Positions 1 through 11,340 of a stretch of DNA of 11,340 bases are shown in pieces. The notes under the pieces were generated by a model. The model was not told where the DNA came from, did no database searches, and saw nothing but the letters and a program-made list of their open reading frames with translations. This DNA is from a virus (lineage: Duplodnaviria; Heunggongvirae; Uroviricota; Caudoviricetes). The translations under genes and the position numbers were made by a program. Every line of letters begins with the position of its first letter. Within the stretch, counting starts at the first letter, position 1. The stretch lies in the IMG/VR virus record IMGVR_UViG_3300029647_000018; one strand, 5' to 3'.

Positions 1-77
1 AAAAACGGTTCTGTGAAAGTGACACGAACCGATCTCCATCGATGTTACTCACCGATCTCCTTCACGGTAATACGCAC
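1..77. repeat. Left copy of a perfect inverted repeat (exact reverse complement of 11256..11332); begins at window base 1, so true length may exceed 77 bp
   Basis: Direct comparison: reverse complement of 11256..11332 equals 1..77 base for base; identity breaks at 78 versus 11255. Contains two 10-bp direct repeats ACCGATCTCC (28..37, 51..60) around an ATCGAT palindrome (38..43). Confidence 0.95.
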
Positions 78-319
78 TTATGGCAGTGAATGAAATACGC
101 ATCGCGGATAACAGCGCGTTTTGTCGCTTCCGGCCACTTATCATCCCAGCGGTCAACCGAAAATGACCACGCCAGCCACGGCAGCAGATTTGCCGGACAG
201 GTATCCGGGTTCCACAGCTCACGAATACTGACCGGCGTTTTTTCAATTTCCGCACAGGCTTTTGCGGCGGCGACTTCAAGCGGTGATGAGCCGGTCGGCA
301 GCAGTCGCGAATCACTCAT
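62..319 (-). pseudogene. I: Truncated baseplate protein gpI-like: about 81 native residues then CVLP-stop supplied by the inverted repeat (P2 gpI is about 176 aa)
   Basis: ORF starts MSDSRLLPTGSSPLEV..., matching my recollection of the P2 gpI N-terminus; ATG at 317..319 overlaps J stop (312..314). The last 4 codons and the stop (62..76) lie inside repeat 1..77. Immediately downstream of J as in P2. Confidence 0.8.
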
Positions 320-1220
320 CCGAGCCTCCCGTCACGACGCGGTATTCAGTACAGAAAGACGCCTGCGTATTGTTGAGCACGATGTCGGCCAGTGGTGCGG
401 CCAGCTCGACACGCTGCACGCCTTCCACATGCAAAGCGGCATAAATGGCAGACAGACGGATGTCGCGCCCCAGCCGGTGCTGTGCCGTGATGTACGCTTC
501 CAGTTTTTTCACGGCAGCAGCGCGGATGGGTTCGCTTTCGGGGCCAGGGTAAAGGTAAAGCGTGGCATTTATCTGGTATTCAACAATGGCGGCAGACTGC
601 ACGGTCACGCGGTCGGCCACCGGCCTGACGTCCTCGCCATTAAGGGCGTTACGCACCACAGCCAGCAGGTCTTCGGATGCGACGCCGTTATTTTCACGTG
701 ACAGCACAGAGATAGTAACGCAGGCCGGAGACGGACTGGTGACAGAAATATCGGCGACACGCCCGTCAGCACTGCGACCATGATACTGATAGGCACCCAC
801 CGACCCGGCGACGCTTAAACCTTCAAACGCCTGCTGAATACGCAACCGATAATCGGTGTCAGATTCCATCACTGCCGGTGTCGGCGGGATGGTCGAATCG
901 TCTGCCGGGGTGATAGTCAGGCGCGTGGTGTTGTAATTGGCACCAATCACATCAAGGTCATTACCGGCGGCACAGGCCAGCATCACCGCCCGTGCGGCCT
1001 CATTCACACGCTGACGCCAGATAAGCTCACGATAAGCATTTTCCTCCAGCAGCTTGACGAGAGGCTCGGATTCCAGCGTCAGGGTACGGGCGACCGCCTC
1101 CTGCTGGTCTTCCGGGTAAAGGGAAATCAGTGTCGCCTTGCGTTCGGCGAGAATGGTTTCAAAGTCCAGCTCCTCGACCACATCCGGTGCGGGTAGCTGG
1201 TTCAGGTCGATAATCGGCAT
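312..1220 (-). CDS. J: Baseplate assembly protein gpJ (baseplate wedge), 302 aa
   Basis: 302-aa ORF MPIIDLNQLPAPDVVEELDFE..., same length as P2 gpJ; position between W and I as in P2. Confidence 0.92.
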   Translation of the reverse strand: MPIIDLNQLPAPDVVEELDFETILAERKATLISLYPEDQQEAVARTLTLESEPLVKLLEENAYRELIWRQRVNEAARAVMLACAAGNDLDVIGANYNTTRLTITPADDSTIPPTPAVMESDTDYRLRIQQAFEGLSVAGSVGAYQYHGRSADGRVADISVTSPSPACVTISVLSRENNGVASEDLLAVVRNALNGEDVRPVADRVTVQSAAIVEYQINATLYLYPGPESEPIRAAAVKKLEAYITAQHRLGRDIRLSAIYAALHVEGVQRVELAAPLADIVLNNTQASFCTEYRVVTGGSDE

Positions 1221-1224
1221 GGTT

Positions 1225-1572
1225 TCAACTCACAGGGATGGTTAACGAAAGTGGCTGGCCGGTGTCGTTGTGCTGGCCGGTTAACGTGACCGTCATTCGC
1301 CCGTCAAAACTGCGCGCCGTAGTGACGGATGACAGGGTGACGCGGGGTTCCCATTTCAGCACCGCCATGTAACAGGCGACCTTAATCTGCAACTCAAGCG
1401 CCTGGGTCTGCGGCTGGTCAATCATTGATGCCAGCAACGAGCCGTAATCACGACGCATCACCCGTGAGCCGACCGGTGTGCGCAGGATATCGCCGATACT
1501 CTGGCTGATATGCTCAAGGTCAGTGACAGTCAGGCCATCACTGCGATTCATTCCGAGATAACGTGCTGTCAT
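1225..1572 (-). CDS. W: Baseplate protein gpW (gp25-like), 115 aa
   Basis: 115-aa ORF, same length as P2 gpW; start overlaps V stop as ATGA (1569..1572); flanked by V and J. Confidence 0.9.
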   Translation of the reverse strand: MTARYLGMNRSDGLTVTDLEHISQSIGDILRTPVGSRVMRRDYGSLLASMIDQPQTQALELQIKVACYMAVLKWEPRVTLSSVTTARSFDGRMTVTLTGQHNDTGQPLSLTIPVS

Positions 1573-2204
1573 AGAGGACTCCCGGTTGTGCCGCCGCTGT
1601 CTCCTGGGTGTTTGTGGGTATGCAGTACCTTACCGTTTGATGAGAGTTCACCGCCGGTGTGTTCAATGTTGCCGCGCATCGTCCCGCCCTTCTGCACTTC
1701 CAGCGTGCCGGTAATCAGCCTGTTGGTGCAGACCACCTCCGGTGTGTCCAGGGTGACGCGGGTTGATGCTTTCACCATGACCACCGGCACCGTGGCAGTA
1801 ACAGAATCAGAAGCCGTCACGCTGACCGTTTTAATTCCGCTTACCGTGAGTGCACTGGTTTCGGGTTCATATTCAATCACCGCTCCGTCAGGGAAACGGA
1901 TATGCAGGGCATCCGCCGACGCAGACGGCGCGGGGTTATCGCCGGAATAAATCCCCGGCAGAACGAACGCCGTGTCGAGTTCACCGCCCACGGCCAGAAT
2001 CAGCACCTGCTCCCCCACGGAAGGTGCCCACCATGTGCGCGAACGACCGGCACGATGGGTCAGCCACTGAAGCCAGTCAGTGCACATGCCGCCGGTCTGC
2101 ACACGGCAGCGACCGGCGTTAAGGTCGGTTTCGACGACAAGGCCGGTGCGGATCATGTTGCGCAGTGCGCGCGCGAGTTCCTGAATATTTGCGAGAGTGT
2201 TCAT
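1569..2204 (-). CDS. V: Baseplate spike/hub protein gpV, 211 aa
   Basis: 211-aa ORF MNTLANIQELARALRNMIRTG..., same length as P2 gpV; first gene after the S-V intergenic gap. Confidence 0.92.
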   Translation of the reverse strand: MNTLANIQELARALRNMIRTGLVVETDLNAGRCRVQTGGMCTDWLQWLTHRAGRSRTWWAPSVGEQVLILAVGGELDTAFVLPGIYSGDNPAPSASADALHIRFPDGAVIEYEPETSALTVSGIKTVSVTASDSVTATVPVVMVKASTRVTLDTPEVVCTNRLITGTLEVQKGGTMRGNIEHTGGELSSNGKVLHTHKHPGDSGGTTGSPL

Positions 2205-2270
2205 AACGGGAAGGATGCCGCCGGGTCATACCGGCGGCAATGTGACGATGAGGTGTCGGGAATGGCACAA
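2205..2270 (-). promoter_or_regulatory. S-V intergenic region; expected location of the Ogr-dependent late promoter for the V-W-J-I operon; contains a GC-rich hairpin (2217..2238)
   Basis: P2 has a late promoter upstream of V (established knowledge). In the sequence I see only a 66-bp gap and the dyad GCCGCCGG-gtcata-CCGGCGGC; no exact TGT-N12-ACA element found (nearest is TGT-N10-ACA at 2254..2269). Confidence 0.3.
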
Positions 2271-2723
2271 CTAACGGTCGAGGTGAGCCAGGATAATCTC
2301 TTCAATCATCTGCACATCCTCACCGGTAAAGCCGAGCAGAGGACGCGCCGGATAATCAATTTTCTTACCGTCTTTCCGGGTTTCTTCCGACAGACCGAAC
2401 TGATGCACGCTGGCGATTTTCGGTGACTTCCCGCCGTAAAATTCCATTGATGCCTGTTCAGGGCTGGCGCGGATATGCAAAAAACGACTGGTGATAAGTT
2501 TCGCAAACATTTTTCGCTTAACGCGACCGGTCTTTTTTCTGGCGCTCTGCTGCTGACGTGGCGCGTAGGGTGTGCCGTCCGGGGCTTTCTGAGCCATCAC
2601 CCGGCGCTGCTGACTCTGCCGCAGACGTTTCGCCAGTTCGGCACTCAGTCGCCGACGCCCTGACGGTGACAGCGATTCAGTCAGTCCGGCCAGCCGGTCT
2701 TCAAAACGCTTAAACTCATTCAT
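2271..2723 (-). CDS. S: Tail completion protein gpS, 150 aa
   Basis: 150-aa ORF, same length as P2 gpS; start (2721..2723) overlaps R stop (2716..2718). Confidence 0.9.
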   Translation of the reverse strand: MNEFKRFEDRLAGLTESLSPSGRRRLSAELAKRLRQSQQRRVMAQKAPDGTPYAPRQQQSARKKTGRVKRKMFAKLITSRFLHIRASPEQASMEFYGGKSPKIASVHQFGLSEETRKDGKKIDYPARPLLGFTGEDVQMIEEIILAHLDR

Positions 2724-3186
2724 CCCACTTGCTCACCAGTTCGCCATTGATATAAAGCTCCATCGGGCGGGTGACCGGCTCCGGCGGCGGGGGTTCCGGA
2801 ATATTCTTCACATGCAGTGCGCCGTCAACCTCACTGACCAGCGTGCGCTCGGTCAGCATCAGGCTGATGCTGATATCAAAGCTGCTGTCATTGTTGATGT
2901 CTGCATAAAACGTGAAGCCCTTTTTCTGGCCTTCGTCGGTGGTCATGATGTCGGGCTGATTTTCCCGCAGCCACGCCAGCACCGGCACGATGAGCAGGTC
3001 AAAATCACCGGTAAAGTCGGTCACAATGACATTGAGCGTGTAACGCTTTTCGAATGACAGCGACGCCGCCAGTGTGGAGGCAATACTCCCGTTATCCACG
3101 AATATCCGCAGCATCTCTGGACTGGTTTTCAACACCGTGACGGCATCAGTCAGCGCCCTGCGCAGGCTGTCGGGTTTGAGCATCAT
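2716..3186 (-). CDS. R: Tail completion protein gpR (155-156 aa; start may be the second ATG at 3181..3183)
   Basis: ORF MMLKPDSLRRALTDAV...; P2 gpR is 155 aa; tandem ATG ATG at 3181..3186. Confidence 0.88.
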   Translation of the reverse strand: MMLKPDSLRRALTDAVTVLKTSPEMLRIFVDNGSIASTLAASLSFEKRYTLNVIVTDFTGDFDLLIVPVLAWLRENQPDIMTTDEGQKKGFTFYADINNDSSFDISISLMLTERTLVSEVDGALHVKNIPEPPPPEPVTRPMELYINGELVSKWDE

Positions 3187-3436
3187 TTTCGTCCTGACAG
3201 TGTTTAATCATTTTTACCTGGCTGGCACAGCGTGCCAGCGCGTCCTCAAGCTGCCGGATATCGGCACTTAAATCGCCGTTCTTCTGCGGGTCACTGCCCG
3301 GCATCGGGCAAAGACTCACTTTCGGGCAGGCGTTGTGGACAATCACTGGCGTCGGTGCAGGCGGGGCGCTGGTGCAACCGGCGCACAGCATCAGGCAGGT
3401 CAGCACCGTACCAGCGGCGAAAATCCTCGTTTTCAT
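3146..3436 (-). CDS. lysC: LysC, Rz1-like outer-membrane lipoprotein spanin (o-spanin), 96 aa, nested out of frame in lysB and running into R
   Basis: Internal ATG at 3434..3436 in an alternative frame of lysB gives MKTRIFAAGTVLTCLMLCAGCTSAPPAPTP...: signal-peptide-like segment with Cys-containing lipobox-like motif and a Pro-rich stretch. 96 aa equals the P2 LysC size. Confidence 0.75.
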   Translation of the reverse strand: MKTRIFAAGTVLTCLMLCAGCTSAPPAPTPVIVHNACPKVSLCPMPGSDPQKNGDLSADIRQLEDALARCASQVKMIKHCQDENDAQTRQPAQGAD

Positions 3437-3716
3437 TAAGTAACCTCGTGATGGTTTTCTCGCGCTGTGCTTCACGCTTCGCAGCGTTCTCCAGCTCCTG
3501 ACGCAGAGCCACCTGCGCCAGCTCGTTTTTGTCTGCTCTGGTGAGCGCAACATGAAGCTGATTTTTCAGCATGGTGATGGTCGTCTGCTGTTCACTGGCG
3601 ACGTTGTTCGCCCTGTCCAGCGAGGCGCGCAGGCTGGCATTTTTATGTTTCACCAGAAACAGACCGGCCACCGCCAGCGATAACAACACGACCAGCACAG
3701 TCATCAGCTTTGACAT
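3291..3716 (-). CDS. lysB: LysB, Rz-like inner-membrane spanin (i-spanin), 141 aa
   Basis: 141-aa ORF with N-terminal hydrophobic anchor MSKLMTVLVVLLSLAVAGLFLV followed by a charged, coiled-coil-like region; same size as P2 LysB. Confidence 0.88.
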   Translation of the reverse strand: MSKLMTVLVVLLSLAVAGLFLVKHKNASLRASLDRANNVASEQQTTITMLKNQLHVALTRADKNELAQVALRQELENAAKREAQREKTITRLLNENEDFRRWYGADLPDAVRRLHQRPACTDASDCPQRLPESESLPDAGQ

Positions 3717-4129
3717 GGTTCCCGCCCCTCAAAACGCTGACGGCAGGCCGTACGTATCAGCCGGAAGAACAGCGACGCCACGAGATAAATCAGCGCGGTA
3801 AAAATCCACCCGGCAGCGACCAGCGAGATAAACGTCGTCACCATCACCACCAGAGCCGCCGCCCGTCTGCGCCACGGCACCGGCTGCAAAAACAGCGACG
3901 CGACAATCTTCACGGCCAGCGATTCCGGCGGCAGCTCCCGCCCGTAGCGTTCCAGCACATACTCCGTGGTATACACGCCGACACCACCGGCAACCACACA
4001 GATAACCGTCGCCAGAATCGCCCAGGCGGCGACAAAATTGACGGCCACGCTCTGCGGGTAAATCAGGGACAGTGCCAGCATCAGCGCCAGCGACACGTTC
4101 AGCATCAGTGAAAGGGATAATTTCTTCAT
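3704..4129 (-). CDS. lysA: LysA, multi-pass membrane lysis-timing protein, 141 aa
   Basis: 141-aa ORF with 3-4 hydrophobic helices; position between K and lysB; P2 LysA is 141 aa; GGAG 9 nt upstream of ATG. Confidence 0.85.
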   Translation of the reverse strand: MKKLSLSLMLNVSLALMLALSLIYPQSVAVNFVAAWAILATVICVVAGGVGVYTTEYVLERYGRELPPESLAVKIVASLFLQPVPWRRRAAALVVMVTTFISLVAAGWIFTALIYLVASLFFRLIRTACRQRFEGREPCQS

Positions 4130-4143
4130 GGTGTTTACTCCGT

Positions 4144-4641
4144 TTAAGCCGGTACGCCGCCAGCGGTACGCCAGACGGTGACCAGTTTTTCCAGTGAATG
4201 CTCACGCTGACCGTAACCGGCTCCCGGCAGGGACGCCCAGATATTGCGACAGCGTGAAATGGCGCGCTCAATGCGTCCCGCCCGGATGTCATCCAGTGCA
4301 CCGCGTTCGCGGATCAACTGAATGGCAAGTCTGTCCTGTGACAACGGACTGAAATCCGGCAGGGCAAGCTGTTTGCGGTAATGCGGCCAGAACAGGTAAA
4401 GCTGCTGATAGCGACCGGAGGCCGTGGATTTTTCACCGCGACGGTTAAACACCTTCGCCGGTCGGCCATGCGCGAACGGGTGGTCACTGTAGTCAGTGAA
4501 AATTTCCGGCTTCCCGTCCAGTCCGGTGACTATCACGTCATAGCCCCGGTTTTTCGTCAGCGGATGATTCGCCGTCCCTTCGGACACGGCCAGCATGTCG
4601 AGAAAGGCCGCGATATTCTGATGCGTGTTAATTACCGGCAT
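4144..4641 (-). CDS. K: Endolysin gpK (lysozyme-like), 165 aa
   Basis: 165-aa ORF MPVINTHQNIAAFLDMLAVSEGT... with lysozyme-like E...D...T N-terminal motif; start overlaps Y stop (TAATG at 4639..4643). Confidence 0.9.
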   Translation of the reverse strand: MPVINTHQNIAAFLDMLAVSEGTANHPLTKNRGYDVIVTGLDGKPEIFTDYSDHPFAHGRPAKVFNRRGEKSTASGRYQQLYLFWPHYRKQLALPDFSPLSQDRLAIQLIRERGALDDIRAGRIERAISRCRNIWASLPGAGYGQREHSLEKLVTVWRTAGGVPA

Positions 4642-4922
4642 TACGGTTTCCCCCTGCCCTTAAAACGGCGCTGAATGGCAATCTCAATCACCTGATAACC
4701 GGCGATACCCAGCATGGAGCCGATACCGCACACCGCAGGCAGTGACAGGTCAGGAAACTGCACCAGAACAACACCGGCAACCATCGAGACAAAACCACCG
4801 AGCAACATGCGCCCGATAAACAGACGCGGGGTGATGGGTTCACCACCGGCAAGCACCTTGCCGACAACAATCAGCACCCCAATCATGAAAAGCGACAGGA
4901 CGCTTTTTTCTTCTGCTGTCAT
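4641..4922 (-). CDS. Y: Holin gpY, 93 aa
   Basis: 93-aa ORF with hydrophobic transmembrane segments and charged C-terminus; directly upstream of the endolysin; same size as P2 gpY. Confidence 0.9.
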   Translation of the reverse strand: MTAEEKSVLSLFMIGVLIVVGKVLAGGEPITPRLFIGRMLLGGFVSMVAGVVLVQFPDLSLPAVCGIGSMLGIAGYQVIEIAIQRRFKGRGKP

Positions 4923-4925
4923 GCG

Positions 4926-5129
4926 TTACTCCCACAGATTGACAGTTTCAGCCACGGGCGCGGCCTGAACGTCGGGCAGTTCGACGGCGGTGCCGTGTGG
5001 CAGCACCGCACCCAGTTCAGCCAGTCCCGGATTTGCGGCGAGCACGGTCTCAACCACGCCCTCAGTGCGCCCGTAATACCGGACACAAATGGCGTCGAGC
5101 GTGTCGCCCTGTAGCGCAAAGGTCTTCAT
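4926..5129 (-). CDS. X: Tail protein gpX (small LysM-like protein), 67 aa
   Basis: Internal start MKTFALQGDTLDAICVRYYG... gives 67 aa (P2 gpX size); ATG (5127..5129) overlaps L stop (5129..5131) as ATGA. The track's 90-aa version is an upstream extension. Confidence 0.85.
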   Translation of the reverse strand: MKTFALQGDTLDAICVRYYGRTEGVVETVLAANPGLAELGAVLPHGTAVELPDVQAAPVAETVNLWE

Positions 5130-5638
5130 CAGATTTGACTCACGATGCAGCGCGGCTTGTCCTGGATACGCGCCACCGCCCAGCGCATATCCCGCCACAG
5201 TTCATCAATGGTGCTGTCAATGCTGTCAGCCTTCTTGTCACCTTTCGCACTGGCATCCACGCCGCGATAACGCTCATAAAGCGACGCGGTCGCCATCGCA
5301 CACACGGCGCGCTCGTAGTAAAAAACTTTGATGCTTTCACCGTCGATGTCGTCCGCCGGGACGTCCGCCAGACGCGTAAAACCGGCAGTAATTTTCTGTT
5401 CGCGGTACTCGTACAGCTCCGCATTCGTTTCAGCCATGCCTGACTTGATGGCCTCACGCAGACGGGCGGGGGCGACGGTCTGCTCAAGGCGCATACGTTC
5501 CCGGACGCGCTTCGGGTCGATATCGGGAAAAAAGAACGTGTTTTTAATCACCGGCTCGTCGCCTGCCGGTTGCGGGATGACCACCGTACCCTCACCGGAC
5601 ACGGGAGCCTCCTTTCGCGGAATAATCAGCGTCATCAT
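5129..5638 (-). CDS. L: Head completion/stabilisation protein gpL, 169 aa
   Basis: Start at tandem MM (5633..5638) preceded by GAGGTGG gives 169 aa (P2 gpL size), MMTLIIPRKEAPVSGEG...; the 189-aa track ORF is an upstream extension. Confidence 0.88.
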   Translation of the reverse strand: MMTLIIPRKEAPVSGEGTVVIPQPAGDEPVIKNTFFFPDIDPKRVRERMRLEQTVAPARLREAIKSGMAETNAELYEYREQKITAGFTRLADVPADDIDGESIKVFYYERAVCAMATASLYERYRGVDASAKGDKKADSIDSTIDELWRDMRWAVARIQDKPRCIVSQI

Positions 5639-5737
5639 GACCACCTCTGAAAAGTCGGGCGGTGGACGCCGGTGCAGTGTCAGATGATTCACCCTCACTG
5701 ACCGGCGTGCCGCCCTGGCGCGGGGCGCATTCGGTTG

Positions 5738-6481
5738 TTAACTGGCTTTCTTTTTCGGGCGTCCACGTTTTGCCGGTGTCACGCTCCGGGTCTTACGCGG
5801 GGCGCGGGTGGCCGCTTTGGGTTGTGGCTCCGGCTTCGGTTTCAGCTCCCGCTCCAGTCGTTCAATCTCTTTTTTGACGCCTGCCTGACAGTCGAGCTGT
5901 GTCGCACGTTGCAGGTGCGCCAGTGCACCTGCGGCATCACCAGCGTCACGCAGAAACAGACCGGTGATTTTGTGCAGCTTTGCGCGCACTTCATCAGGCA
6001 TGTCAGCCGTGGCGGTCAGTTCAAGGGTGTCCGTCAGCAGGCGGGTATCCACGGATTCACCGGCAGCGTGAGCGCGCATGGCCGCGAGCGCGACCTCCTC
6101 GGTGAACATGTACGGCGGGGTGCGGCGGTGTTTACCCGGCATGGTCAGACCGTACTTCAGGGCATAACGGGCAATCTCCAGCGCACCGGCAATATCGCCG
6201 GTATCCAGACGCCACAGCATGACCGTCATCAGAATGTCATCCTGTGCACCTTTGCCCTGCTCCAGCACGCCGTTCACCCACGGCAACCAGAACGGCAACA
6301 GTTCGCGTTTTTTCGCGGCCTTAAGCTCTTTTGAATAAATCGCTTTCAGTGTGCGCTGGTCTGCGGCCAGCTTGACCAGCATCTGCTCATAGACAGTTGC
6401 ATGTCGCAGCGGGGCGGCTTCCCGCTGCGCGGTCATCGCTGCCGAGACCCGCATCATGTGGCGCTGTGCGGGACTCGTCAT
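5738..6481 (-). CDS. M: Terminase endonuclease (small) subunit gpM, 247 aa
   Basis: 247-aa ORF (P2 gpM size) with a very basic C-terminal tail ...TPAKRGRPKKKAS; immediately downstream of N with a 3-nt spacer. Confidence 0.9.
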   Translation of the reverse strand: MTSPAQRHMMRVSAAMTAQREAAPLRHATVYEQMLVKLAADQRTLKAIYSKELKAAKKRELLPFWLPWVNGVLEQGKGAQDDILMTVMLWRLDTGDIAGALEIARYALKYGLTMPGKHRRTPPYMFTEEVALAAMRAHAAGESVDTRLLTDTLELTATADMPDEVRAKLHKITGLFLRDAGDAAGALAHLQRATQLDCQAGVKKEIERLERELKPKPEPQPKAATRAPRKTRSVTPAKRGRPKKKAS

Positions 6482-6484
6482 CGG

Positions 6485-7558
6485 TTACGCTCCCGGCTCT
6501 GCGGTCGCCTTAGCAGGTGTGGAGAAATCACCGACCTTAATTTTTTCCACCAGACAACCGGCTGCGTAGTCTTCCACTACGTAATCAATGTTCATTGACT
6601 CGTAGTTCTCCACGCGGTCGAGTTTCGGGTTTTCCACAATCACGCGGCGATGGCTGTCATCCATGTAGTAGATGGACAGGTTTTCCAGCTTCGTGATGAG
6701 CATCGCATCCGCCGGGAAGTACGGGACGCGTACCGCTGGCAGGTTGCCGATGCGTTTCTGGCTGATGATGACGTCAGCGGCCAGCATCTCGCTGTTGTCC
6801 TGCTCCTTGTTGACGATGGGGAAATACTTGTCCGCCAGTAGCTGACGCCCCACAATCACCACAAGGTCAGGGTCTTCCTGATACCACGGTTCAATCAGGT
6901 TGTTGGTCGCATCCATCACCAGTGCATCAAGGCTGGCATAATCACCGCCCTTACCCACGCGGATAACCTCAGAGGTGGTGCGGCCTTCCTCGTCAGTGAC
7001 CTTGCTCATCACGCGCGCCGGGGCTTCATTGCGGTATTTCTGCAGCCAGCCGACCGCCACATCCTGCAGCATCGGATTGCTGTTGCGGTCAGAGGTTTCG
7101 GCACGCTTCACGCCGTTAAAACCGGCCATGATGAAATCAAGGGACTGGCGTTTGATAATGGCGTTACGGATACGGAGCTGGAAATCCTGATAACGCGCCC
7201 ACAGGTCAAGCGTTTTGTAGCGGATATAAAAATCGAAGTTAATCTGGTCGCATTCGTACTTACTGGACGCCAGCTTCGAGAAGTCCTTCGGCTGACGCTC
7301 GGTGCCACCGGCGGTGTCGGTGGTGCTGGCGATGGAGCCGGTGACACCGATACCAATTTTTTCCCCTTTCATTTCGCTGACCGGCACAATGTTGATGCGG
7401 GTCAGGAAATCAGAGGACTCCTGCATGGTGTTCATCAGGGTCTGGGTGACCGACGGTTCAACGGTGAATTTTTTCGACACATCACCGGCGTCGATGCCGT
7501 TCAGTTCGGCAACACGGGACAGGTAAGCATTAAATTTAAAGCGGGTTTCCTGGCGCAT
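6485..7558 (-). CDS. N: Major capsid protein gpN, 357 aa
   Basis: 357-aa ORF MRQETRFKFNAYLSRVAELNGI..., same length as P2 gpN; AGGA 7 nt upstream of ATG. Confidence 0.95.
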   Translation of the reverse strand: MRQETRFKFNAYLSRVAELNGIDAGDVSKKFTVEPSVTQTLMNTMQESSDFLTRINIVPVSEMKGEKIGIGVTGSIASTTDTAGGTERQPKDFSKLASSKYECDQINFDFYIRYKTLDLWARYQDFQLRIRNAIIKRQSLDFIMAGFNGVKRAETSDRNSNPMLQDVAVGWLQKYRNEAPARVMSKVTDEEGRTTSEVIRVGKGGDYASLDALVMDATNNLIEPWYQEDPDLVVIVGRQLLADKYFPIVNKEQDNSEMLAADVIISQKRIGNLPAVRVPYFPADAMLITKLENLSIYYMDDSHRRVIVENPKLDRVENYESMNIDYVVEDYAAGCLVEKIKVGDFSTPAKATAEPGA

Positions 7559-7616
7559 AGTTTTTCCTGAAATTAAGTGTTAATCGTGAAGGTTTTCCCG
7601 GACTGACTGACGCCGA

Positions 7617-8471
7617 TCAGCAGTTCGTCATCAGGGCGTCACCGCCACCGCCGGTGGCCTTGCTGCGGCGCTGCTGGGTCAGACTTTCGGTGTGGTCGAG
7701 ACTGTTTTTCAGGCGGGTGAATGCCTGGCTGGTTTCATCCGCCCTGTCAGTCACATCCTGCTTAAGTGCGGAAAAGGCGTTTTCCATCTCAGCGAGGCGC
7801 TGCTCAGTGGCGCTCAGTTTTTCCTGCACATGTTCAGCAACAGCGGTCACCGCTTCATGCACGTCATTCAGACGGGCGTCATCGCTGGCCTGTTTGCGGC
7901 CAAAAATGGATTTCACCTTTTCGGTCAGGGCGGTGAACACGGTTTCAGGCAGGTCTTCAAATTCCAGCTCAACGGGCGTTGCCACTGAAATCAGATTTTC
8001 AGGGCTTAATTTGAAGCGGTTCAGAGGGTTGTGTTTTGCCGTGCGGCAGAATTCCAGGTATTCCGTGCCGAGGCTTGCCGGGTCATCGGTGACGGCCAGC
8101 CCCACCAGATAACATTTGCCGGTGTTGGCAAAGTTCGGCTGAATTTCCATTGAGGTGTAGACCTTCTGCGCGGCCTTGTTCATCGCGATAAGGTCATCGG
8201 TCGGGGTGATTTTCGCAAACAGCGCCCATTTGCCTTTCAGCGCCGAATCATCGTCAATCTTTTCAGCCTTCAGTTCGACCACATCGCCATAACGCTTAAA
8301 AATACCGTCAGGCAGGATGCCGCGCAGATGTTCCAGGTTAATGCGGCAACCATAGACACGCGGGTCAAAGGTTTCGGCCATTTCCTGAATATCCTGCGCA
8401 CTGATGACACGCCCGTCACAGGTGTCACCCTCAACGCCGATACGAAAGAATTTTGAGACTTTTTTTGCCAT
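7617..8471 (-). CDS. O: Capsid scaffolding protein gpO with N-terminal serine protease domain, 284 aa
   Basis: Start at MAKKVSKFFRIGVEGDT... (ATG 8469..8471) gives 284 aa (P2 gpO size). Residues D19, H48 and S107 are present at the positions I recall as the P2 gpO catalytic triad. Confidence 0.9.
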   Translation of the reverse strand: MAKKVSKFFRIGVEGDTCDGRVISAQDIQEMAETFDPRVYGCRINLEHLRGILPDGIFKRYGDVVELKAEKIDDDSALKGKWALFAKITPTDDLIAMNKAAQKVYTSMEIQPNFANTGKCYLVGLAVTDDPASLGTEYLEFCRTAKHNPLNRFKLSPENLISVATPVELEFEDLPETVFTALTEKVKSIFGRKQASDDARLNDVHEAVTAVAEHVQEKLSATEQRLAEMENAFSALKQDVTDRADETSQAFTRLKNSLDHTESLTQQRRSKATGGGGDALMTNC

Positions 8472-8644
8472 TGTCAGGAGTCCTGAATAGTGATTAGAGG
8501 AGTCACATGTCGGCATCAGTTTCCCGACGATGCGCATCCTCCGCCATCAGTCCCGGATGGCTTATCACTGACACAACAGCACCTTAGCGAATCGCGGGGC
8601 GCGACTCAGTAGCCTTGCCGTGTATTCATCACGGCGAGGTATTC
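8472..8644. promoter_or_regulatory. Divergent O/P intergenic region; expected site of the two divergent Ogr-dependent late promoters
   Basis: 173-bp non-coding gap between divergent operons, as in P2. Seen in sequence: imperfect dyad TGG-N12-ACA (8558..8575), direct repeat CATCAGT (8514..8520, 8545..8551), small hairpin 8509..8528. Exact promoter elements not verified. Confidence 0.5.
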
Positions 8645-10417
8645 ATGACCATCACCACAGACACCACTCTTTTGCACGACCCGCGTCGTCAGGCGGCGCT
8701 GCTGTACTGGCAGGGGTTTTCCGTGCCGCAGATTGCCGCCATGTTGCAGATGAAACGCCCGACGGTGCAGAGCTGGAAACAGCGCGACGGCTGGGACAGC
8801 GTTGCCCCCATCAGCCGTGTCGAAATGAGTCTGGAAGCGCGGCTGACCCAGCTCATTATCAAACCGCAGAAAACCGGCGGTGACTTCAAGGAAATTGACC
8901 TGCTCGGACGCCAGATTGAACGACTGGCACGGGTAAACCGCTACAGCCAGACCGGCAACGAGGCAGACCTTAATCCGAACGTCGCTAACCGCAACAAAGG
9001 CGGGCGTCGCAAACCGAAAAAGAATTTTTTCAGTGACGAGGCTATCGAAAAGCTGGAGCAGATTTTCTTTGAGCAGTCTTTCGACTATCAGTTGCACTGG
9101 TATCGCGCCGGGCTTGAGCACCGCATCCGCGATATCCTGAAATCCCGCCAGATTGGCGCGACGTTTTATTTTTCCCGCGAGGCGCTGCTGCGCGCCCTGA
9201 AAACAGGTCATAACCAGATTTTTCTGTCGGCCAGTAAAACGCAGGCGTATGTATTCCGTGAATACATCATCGCCTTTGCCCGTCTGGTTGACGTTGACCT
9301 GACCGGTGACCCGATTGTCCTGGGCAATAACGGCGCAAAACTGATTTTTCTCGGCACCAACTCCAACACCGCGCAGAGCCATAACGGCGACCTGTACGTC
9401 GATGAGATTTTCTGGATCCCGAATTTTCAGGTACTGCGTAAGGTGGCATCAGGTATGGCCTCACAGAGTCACCTGCGCTCGACCTATTTCTCCACCCCGT
9501 CCACGCTGGCGCACGACGCCTATCCGTTCTGGTCCGGTGAACTGTTTAACCGGGGACGCGCCAGCGCCGCCGAACGCGTGGAAATCGACGTCAGTCATAA
9601 CGCCCTTGCCGGTGGGCTTCTCTGTGCGGACGGCCAGTGGCGGCAGATTGTCACCATTGAGGACGCCCTGAAAGGTGGCTGCACGCTGTTCGACATTGAG
9701 CAGCTCAAACGCGAAAACAGCGCCGACGATTTTAAAAACCTGTTCATGTGTGAATTTGTTGACGACAAGGCGTCGGTGTTCCCGTTCGAGGAGCTGCAAC
9801 GCTGCATGGTCGACACGCTGGAAGAATGGGAAGACTATGCGCCGTTTGCCACCAATCCGTTCGGCTCACGTCCGGTATGGATTGGTTACGACCCGTCACA
9901 CCGTGGCGACAGCGCCGGATGCGTGGTACTGGCACCGCCGGTGGTGGCCGGTGGCAAATTCAGAATACTTGAGCGTCACCAGTGGAAAGGCATGGACTTT
10001 GCCACCCAGGCGGAATCCATCCGCAAACTCACCGAAAAATATAACGTTGAATACATCGGGATTGATGCCACCGGCCTCGGTGTCGGCGTGTTCCAGCTCG
10101 TGCGCTCGTTCTATCCCGCCGCGCGCGATATCCGCTACACGCCGGAAATGAAAACCGCAATGGTGCTCAAGGCAAAAGACGTCATCCGCCGTGGCTGTCT
10201 GGAATATGACGTCAGCGCCACCGACATCACCAGCTCGTTTATGGCTATCCGCAAGACCATGACCAGCAGCGGACGCAGCGCCACCTATGAGGCCAGCCGC
10301 AGCGAGGAAGCCAGCCACGCCGACCTCGCCTGGGCGACCATGCACGCCCTGTTAAATGAGCCACTCACCGCCGGTATCAGCACTCCGCTGACATCCACCA
10401 TTCTGGAGTTTTACTGA
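8645..10417 (+). CDS. P: Terminase ATPase (large) subunit gpP, 590 aa
   Basis: Start MTITTDTTLLHDPRRQAALLYWQGF... (ATG 8645, GAGGT upstream) gives 590 aa (P2 gpP size); candidate Walker A-like FLSASKT and Walker B-like LYVDE motifs; stop overlaps Q start (TGATG 10415..10419). Confidence 0.93.
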   Translation: MTITTDTTLLHDPRRQAALLYWQGFSVPQIAAMLQMKRPTVQSWKQRDGWDSVAPISRVEMSLEARLTQLIIKPQKTGGDFKEIDLLGRQIERLARVNRYSQTGNEADLNPNVANRNKGGRRKPKKNFFSDEAIEKLEQIFFEQSFDYQLHWYRAGLEHRIRDILKSRQIGATFYFSREALLRALKTGHNQIFLSASKTQAYVFREYIIAFARLVDVDLTGDPIVLGNNGAKLIFLGTNSNTAQSHNGDLYVDEIFWIPNFQVLRKVASGMASQSHLRSTYFSTPSTLAHDAYPFWSGELFNRGRASAAERVEIDVSHNALAGGLLCADGQWRQIVTIEDALKGGCTLFDIEQLKRENSADDFKNLFMCEFVDDKASVFPFEELQRCMVDTLEEWEDYAPFATNPFGSRPVWIGYDPSHRGDSAGCVVLAPPVVAGGKFRILERHQWKGMDFATQAESIRKLTEKYNVEYIGIDATGLGVGVFQLVRSFYPAARDIRYTPEMKTAMVLKAKDVIRRGCLEYDVSATDITSSFMAIRKTMTSSGRSATYEASRSEEASHADLAWATMHALLNEPLTAGISTPLTSTILEFY

Positions 10418-11271
10418 TGAGCAAGAAAAAAGGGAAAACACCGCAACCTGCGGCAAAAACAATCACCGCCAGCGCCCCGAAAATGGAGGCATTCACCTTT
10501 GGTGAGCCGGTGCCGGTACTCGACCGCCGTGACATTCTGGATTACGTCGAGTGCATCAGTAACGGCAGATGGTATGAGCCACCGGTCAGCTTTACCGGTC
10601 TGGCAAAAAGCCTGCGTGCTGCCGTACATCACAGCTCACCGATTTACGTCAAACGTAATATTCTGGCTTCAACGTTTATTCCGCACCCGTGGCTTTCCCA
10701 GCAGGATTTCAGCCGCTTTGTGCTGGATTTTCTGGTGTTCGGTAATGCGTTTCTGGAAAAGCGCTACAGCACCACCGGTAAGGTCATCAGACTGGAAACC
10801 TCACCGGCAAAATATACCCGCCGTGGTGTTGAGGAGGATGTTTACTGGTGGGTGCCGTCCTTCAACGAGCCGACACCTTTCGCGCCCGGCTCCGTGTTTC
10901 ACCTGCTGGAGCCGGATATTAATCAGGAGCTGTACGGCCTGCCGGAATATCTCAGCGCCCTTAATTCTGCCTGGCTGAATGAATCAGCTACGCTGTTCCG
11001 CCGCAAGTATTACGAAAATGGCGCACATGCCGGATACATCATGTACGTCACCGATGCCGTGCAGGATCGCAACGATATCGAAATGCTTCGCGAAAACATG
11101 GTTAAGTCGAAAGGCCGCAACAACTTTAAAAACCTGTTTCTCTATGCCCCGCAGGGGAAAGCTGACGGCATTAAAATTATCCCACTCAGTGAAGTGGCAA
11201 CGAAGGACGATTTTTTTAATATCAAAAAAGCCAGCGCCGCTGACCTGCTGGACGCGTGCGTATTACCGTGA
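10417..11271 (+). pseudogene. Q: Truncated portal protein gpQ-like: about 280 native residues then CVLP-stop from the inverted repeat (P2 gpQ is about 344 aa)
   Basis: ORF MSKKKGKTPQPAAKTITASAPKMEAF... matches my recollection of the P2 portal N-terminus; the reading frame enters repeat 11256..11332 and stops at 11269..11271. Confidence 0.8.
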
Positions 11272-11332
11272 AGGAGATCGGTGAGTAACATCGATGGAGA
11301 TCGGTTCGTGTCACTTTCACAGAACCGTTTTT
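11256..11332. repeat. Right copy of the perfect inverted repeat (reverse complement of 1..77)
   Basis: Exact 77/77 reverse-complement identity with 1..77; 8 further bases (11333..11340, aaattacc) have no counterpart inside the window because the left copy starts at base 1. Confidence 0.95.
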
Positions 11333-11340
11333 AAATTACC

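Follow-up and report, generated by a model that had tools for sequence, protein, structure and literature searches.

Elements of the IS21 family carry two direct repeats in their terminal inverted repeats (L1/L2 and R1/R2), within ~55 bp of the terminal CA (PMC10122671). In IS5376, a member of this family with a terminal CA and 5-bp target duplications, IstA needs both repeats for integration, and the right terminal inverted repeat (TIR) of IS21 is reported to contain an outward-facing -35 box, the partner of a -10 box in the left TIR when two copies lie in tandem (PMC10122671). ISEc12 has been reported in tssM of ST131, where it is accompanied by a 5-bp duplication (PMC10711316). The window studied here, that is, the whole stretch of 11,340 nucleotides that was analysed (IMG/VR virus record IMGVR_UViG_3300029647_000018, Caudoviricetes), opens and closes with the right end of ISEc12, and a P2-like late-gene block lies between these two ends. 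Its features are as follows.

1 to 76, minus strand: second ISEc12 right terminal inverted repeat (R-TIR), inverted, IS positions 1-76, tip at 76
39 to 1, minus strand: mirror of the small frame, a reverse-complement copy
28 to 40, minus strand: mirror of the second direct repeat
51 to 63, minus strand: mirror of the first direct repeat
62 to 319, minus strand: P2-type tail gene I, cut by ISEc12 (Pfam Tail_P2_I)
77 to 11256, no strand assigned: P2-like late-gene block (ORF list; Pfam labels on an identical contig)
10417 to 11271, plus strand: P2-type portal gene Q, cut by ISEc12 (Pfam Phage_portal)
11257 to 11340, plus strand: ISEc12 R-TIR, istB-proximal, with its tip 5'-TG at 11257
11270 to 11282, plus strand: first direct repeat, core GAAGGAGATCGGT
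11293 to 11305, plus strand: second direct repeat, core GATGGAGATCGGT
11294 to 11340, plus strand: small frame, first 15 of 30 codons (MEIGSCHFHRTVFKLPSLISFGQRRLYFPH, then a stop), antisense to the 3' end of istB

Window 1-77 and 11256-11332 are reverse complements of each other without a mismatch, and an earlier note on this DNA had taken the terminal repeat for the end of an IS. This was correct, and the element can be named: window 11257-11340 is identical to IS positions 1-84 of the PGAP-annotated ISEc12 of NZ_CP188314 (L001; 84/84), and the reverse complement of window 1-76 to IS positions 1-76 (76/76), which amounts to 100% identity over all 84 + 76 IS nucleotides of the window, with the same TG tip. 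Only 1-76 and 11257-11340 are repeat-derived; comparison with intact copies of gene I and of the portal gene shows that the pairing of bases 77 and 11256, both native to the phage, is a coincidence. ISEc12 is 2581 bp long, with the tips TGCGTATT... and ...AATACGCA (from L001), and annotated records assign the sequence to the “IS21-like element ISEc12”, as its end just downstream of istB. A megablast search with window 11200-11340 as query located 6742 occurrences of this end, spread over 2583 of 5426 complete E. coli genomes (ISEc12 is present in about half of them), on chromosomes as well as plasmids and inside many unrelated genes. The tips are TG...CA, and 5-bp target duplications flank the copies in L001 (CGCGC), L002 (ACCAG), and L016 (TCCCC). 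Full copies, including the one at the window's left junction, have the same istB and istA neighbours. The window's copies do not differ from ISEc12 in sequence and only their insertion sites are particular; the element is already known, and the end sequence of the window is nothing novel. Two other origins of the repeat were considered and rejected: the 5' end of a group II intron (GTGCG at 11256), because the first G belongs to the phage and the element itself shows istAB, TG...CA tips, and 5-bp duplications, and a sequencing adapter or fold-back, because the repeat is a genomic multicopy element with junctions that recur in independent samples.

The only long ORFs of ISEc12 are istA (513 aa; Pfam rve and Mu-transpos_C_2) and istB (248 aa; Pfam IstB_IS21, E=2e-67), both encoded on the strand opposite to the small frame. 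PGAP annotates istB and istA adjoining this end in L001, L002, L013, L014, L015, and L016, and in every annotated copy inspected the istB stop occupies IS positions 86-88, that is, 86-88 nt from the tip. The right edge of the window falls one base short of this stop, which would be at 11342-11344 on the minus strand, and the window edges reach neither istB itself nor the stop of the small frame. On the right side, a human-gut metagenome contig of the same genotype (L003) reaches 43 nt beyond this edge and includes the istB stop together with the last 12 codons, read by hand as ...RKIQSPLTEGDQ-stop of IstB and oriented toward the block. On the left side, a Logan contig (ERR13961122_43425; L006) has the left junction exactly as in the window and, beyond it, a complete ISEc12 whose istB and istA are directed at the truncated gene I'. 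The IS21-family arrangement of istA followed by istB was thus found in the full copies, L006 included, with the genes lying beyond the window. Since both junctions expose the same right tip, the block is bracketed by two inverted ISEc12 copies with istAB operons converging on it. From its left end, the one far from the block, each copy reads istA and then istB toward the phage genes; the istB-proximal tips of both copies abut the 11.2-kb block. The earlier note had tentatively placed the block between two outward-reading copies of one gene: the two inverted IS copies are indeed there, but the outward-reading gene is not, as the real istA and istB are encoded on the other strand and face the block rather than pointing away from it. 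In IS21-family ends the genes point toward the right tip, a matter of importance mainly for correct annotation.

Within the R-TIR, two 13-bp direct repeats with the sequence GA[A/T]GGAGATCGGT are placed 23 bp apart. This motif has four matches in the window, two per end, versus 0.00 expected, and a GGAGATC core clusters at both ends of ISEc12. The TG...CA tips and multiple direct repeats of an IS21-type TIR are therefore all present, and the resemblance to the right TIRs of IS21 and IS5376 extends to the placement of the two repeats within ~55 bp of the tip, the terminal CA-3', and the istB stop nearby. By contrast, the repeat sequence is specific to ISEc12, and IstA binding and the outward -35 box have candidate status here. 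By analogy with IS21 and IS5376, we infer that the 13-bp repeats of ISEc12 correspond to the R1/R2 repeats bound by IstA. As in IS21 elements, IstA bound at these repeats would assemble a synaptic complex for cleavage at the terminal CA. A candidate -35 box, TTCACG, is found at IS positions 16-11 (window 61-66; mirror region 11257-11272) and reads toward the block; by eye, it would sit 17 nt from a TATTTT in the left end across a 3-bp junction.

The sequence elements that had suggested a gene start in the repeat are as the earlier note described them: GGTGAG at 11280-11285, an ATG 8 nt downstream at 11294-11296, a frame from this ATG (MEIGSCHFHRTVFKL) that is stop-free up to base 11340, and a mirror ATG at 39-37 on the minus strand. 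The ATG comprises bases 2-4 of the second direct repeat, and GGTGAG, a poor Shine-Dalgarno match, has three bases in common with the end of the first. The two motifs would accordingly be placed in and beside IstA-type repeats, with an accidental frame that ends antisense to istB. An open frame, or “ORF start”, of this kind is statistically unremarkable, with a prior of ~0.5 for 15 stop-free codons and ~0.24 for 30 codons, calculated as (61/64)^n; the terminal repeat is, by comparison, far beyond chance. In L001 the frame reads MEIGSCHFHRTVFKLPSLISFGQRRLYFPH and then stops, which makes 30 codons (IS positions 38-130, stop at 128-130), and the same 30-codon stop is found on L006, where the IS follows a left junction identical to the window's. 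For the right copy in this exact genotype, sequence is available up to 127 nt (L003), 3 nt short of the frame stop, and the verdict on that copy follows from the near-identity of ISEc12 copies and from the full copy of L001, inserted 1 nt away.

Three explanations of the frame can be set side by side. That ATG 11294 starts a genuine transposase or recombinase gene reading outward into the IS agrees with the frame being open to the window edge and with the ATG being kept in related IS21-family elements. However, the long ORF and the match to a transposase or recombinase family that the earlier note anticipated did not materialize: every full ISEc12 copy read ends the frame after 30 codons, an early stop that the note itself had named as grounds for refutation, the 30-residue peptide matches 0 Pfam families at E<=0.01, and the only long ORFs of the element are on the other strand. 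We give next to no credence to such a gene. Another explanation is that the 30-codon frame, or an antisense transcript that begins within the R-TIR, is a small gene or regulatory RNA acting on the 3' end of istB, to whose last 14 codons the frame is antisense. Antisense control has precedents in other IS families, for example RNA-OUT of IS10. We aligned the right ends of elements from Hafnia, Enterobacter, Erwinia, Kosakonia, Arsenophonus, and Photorhabdus with IstB 70-91% identical; these relatives were taken from other genera because the apparently diverged copies of the E. coli search (92-97% matches) are identical IS ends with chance flank similarity, useless for an analysis of conservation. 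The TIR is strongly conserved across them, including the ATG and much of the frame, and the first 23 codons are mostly kept along with the start codon, which speaks for a small gene or RNA. Nevertheless, the length of the frame varies by element (23, 30, or 53 codons), the elements of Arsenophonus and Photorhabdus have another sequence in place of the SD-like GGTGAG, and the 48 nt outside istB contain 13 variable columns, split 4:5:4 over codon positions 1, 2, and 3. In addition, a promoter scan around the IS end detected no sigma-70-like promoter able to drive the frame, and an Rfam scan of the window detected no family. Judging from these alignments, the frame shows no coding signature and its conservation appears to follow a protein-binding site at first and istB further in; the ATG and the frame are conserved because of the TIR repeats and the coding constraints on istB, which accounts for what had favoured a small gene or RNA, and we regard either as very unlikely. 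The 30-codon frame is a chance frame, not a gene. Taken as a whole, the explanation that the window ends in right TIRs of ISEc12, with a chance frame, genes reading toward the block, and direct repeats that would serve as IstA sites, has in our estimation a very high probability, close to certainty. An apparent gene start at the edge of a contig or window can thus be a by-product of transposase-binding repeats.

The terminal inverted repeat might instead be an assembly artefact, with fold-back or chimeric ends in place of two IS copies. The window does stop within the repeat on both sides, and the same block occurs in the human-gut metagenome contig ERZ918399 k127_14615 (11432 nt; L003/L004) flanked on both sides by exactly 127 nt of IS, a pattern characteristic of short-read assemblies (k=127) that break off in a multicopy repeat. 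Yet breaks inside a multicopy IS are expected from real copies too, and the junctions lie in two different phage genes, in each of which the TG tip is clean and precisely placed. The portal junction is present on five contigs, all of 10-20 kb (the one inspected, L003/L004, ends inside the IS on both sides), and the gene I junction in 27 blocks of the collection (24 contigs read), some on contigs of 20-50 kb, while L006 spans the left junction and the whole IS; an artefact is extremely improbable. The insertion in gene I is probably the older or more widespread one, because it is found in more blocks, some of them on longer contigs. Two further readings, one a conserved regulatory micro-gene or antisense transcript in ISEc12-like IS21 elements, the other a mobilisable composite unit with the portal gene as preferred ISEc12 target, have in our view only a very small chance of being right; on the second, the two inverted ISEc12 copies would make the P2 late-gene block mobilisable. 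As in the composite transposons Tn10 and Tn5, two inverted copies of one IS bracket a segment, here of 11.2 kb. Unlike in these transposons, the cargo is a prophage fragment disrupted by the IS copies and not an accessory gene cassette, and the outer ends of the unit would both be left TIRs. Moreover, no such unit turned up at a second locus, nor did an outer target duplication, the outer flanks lying beyond the available contigs, and the left IS copy on L006 runs into yciE sequence.

A P2-like prophage has been interrupted by two inverted copies of ISEc12, which lie in portal gene Q and in tail gene I. On the minus strand, in window order from left to right, the block contains I', J, W, V, S, R, lysC, lysB, lysA, endolysin, holin, X, L, M, N, and O; its right part, on the plus strand, contains P/terL and then Q', and all internal ORFs are intact. 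The portal gene is native up to 11256 and is cut after codon 280 of 344 (an intact 344-codon gene is found in L013), so that ~60 C-terminal codons are lost; the IS contributes the final 5 codons along with the stop. Gene I is native from 319 down to 77, again with its last codons and stop supplied by the IS; it encodes 85 aa versus 203 in intact homologues, the cut falling after ~81 of 203 codons (intact in L012). Loss of the portal C-terminus and of most of tail protein I inactivates the prophage, a case of routine prophage decay. The full length of the internal late genes despite two IS insertions suggests that this inactivation was recent.

The window's exact junctions (portal ...GGACGCG; gene I CTTAT...) are absent from the 5426 complete E. 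coli genomes, among which L001, offset by 1 nt, comes nearest to the portal junction. The right junction had 0 matches in IMG/VR viral contigs, and the expected far-side portal junction (IRL tip + ACGCG + portal) had 0 matches in JGI metagenomes, an uninformative result. L006 (357-2967) is the only public contig that crosses the whole left IS copy, after which it continues with 30 nt of yciE and not with gene I. The far flanks of the window's own copies are outside the window; on L006 the flanks are ATAAG and CAATG (the latter in yciE), which do not match and do not represent a target duplication. The yciE-ISEc12 junction was found neither in complete E. coli genomes nor in JGI metagenomes (0 matches), and the join points to a deletion or inversion mediated by the IS, or to contig ends wrongly connected through the repeat.

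Three independent ISEc12 insertions are located inside the P2-type portal gene, no more than 12 bp apart. The window's own follows GGACGCG (window 11245-11256), that of NZ_CP188314 (L001 6050-6060) is 1 nt further, with CGCGC duplicated, and that of NZ_CP095823 (L016 3560-3572) is 12 nt further, with TCCCC duplicated. Many other ISEc12 copies of E. coli reside in genes of P2-like or other prophages, among them terL and genes for tape measure, scaffold, and tail fibre assembly proteins. The clustering in the portal gene could reflect a target hot spot or the survivorship of insertions in dispensable prophage DNA. As to the distribution of the element, an Enterobacter asburiae assembly includes a stand-alone contig (NODE_64; L019) of 2581 nt, the exact length of ISEc12, that encodes an IstB 90% identical, and a contig labelled Moraxella osloensis (L017) encodes an IstB 100% identical to that of ISEc12, which could be due to horizontal spread or to contamination.
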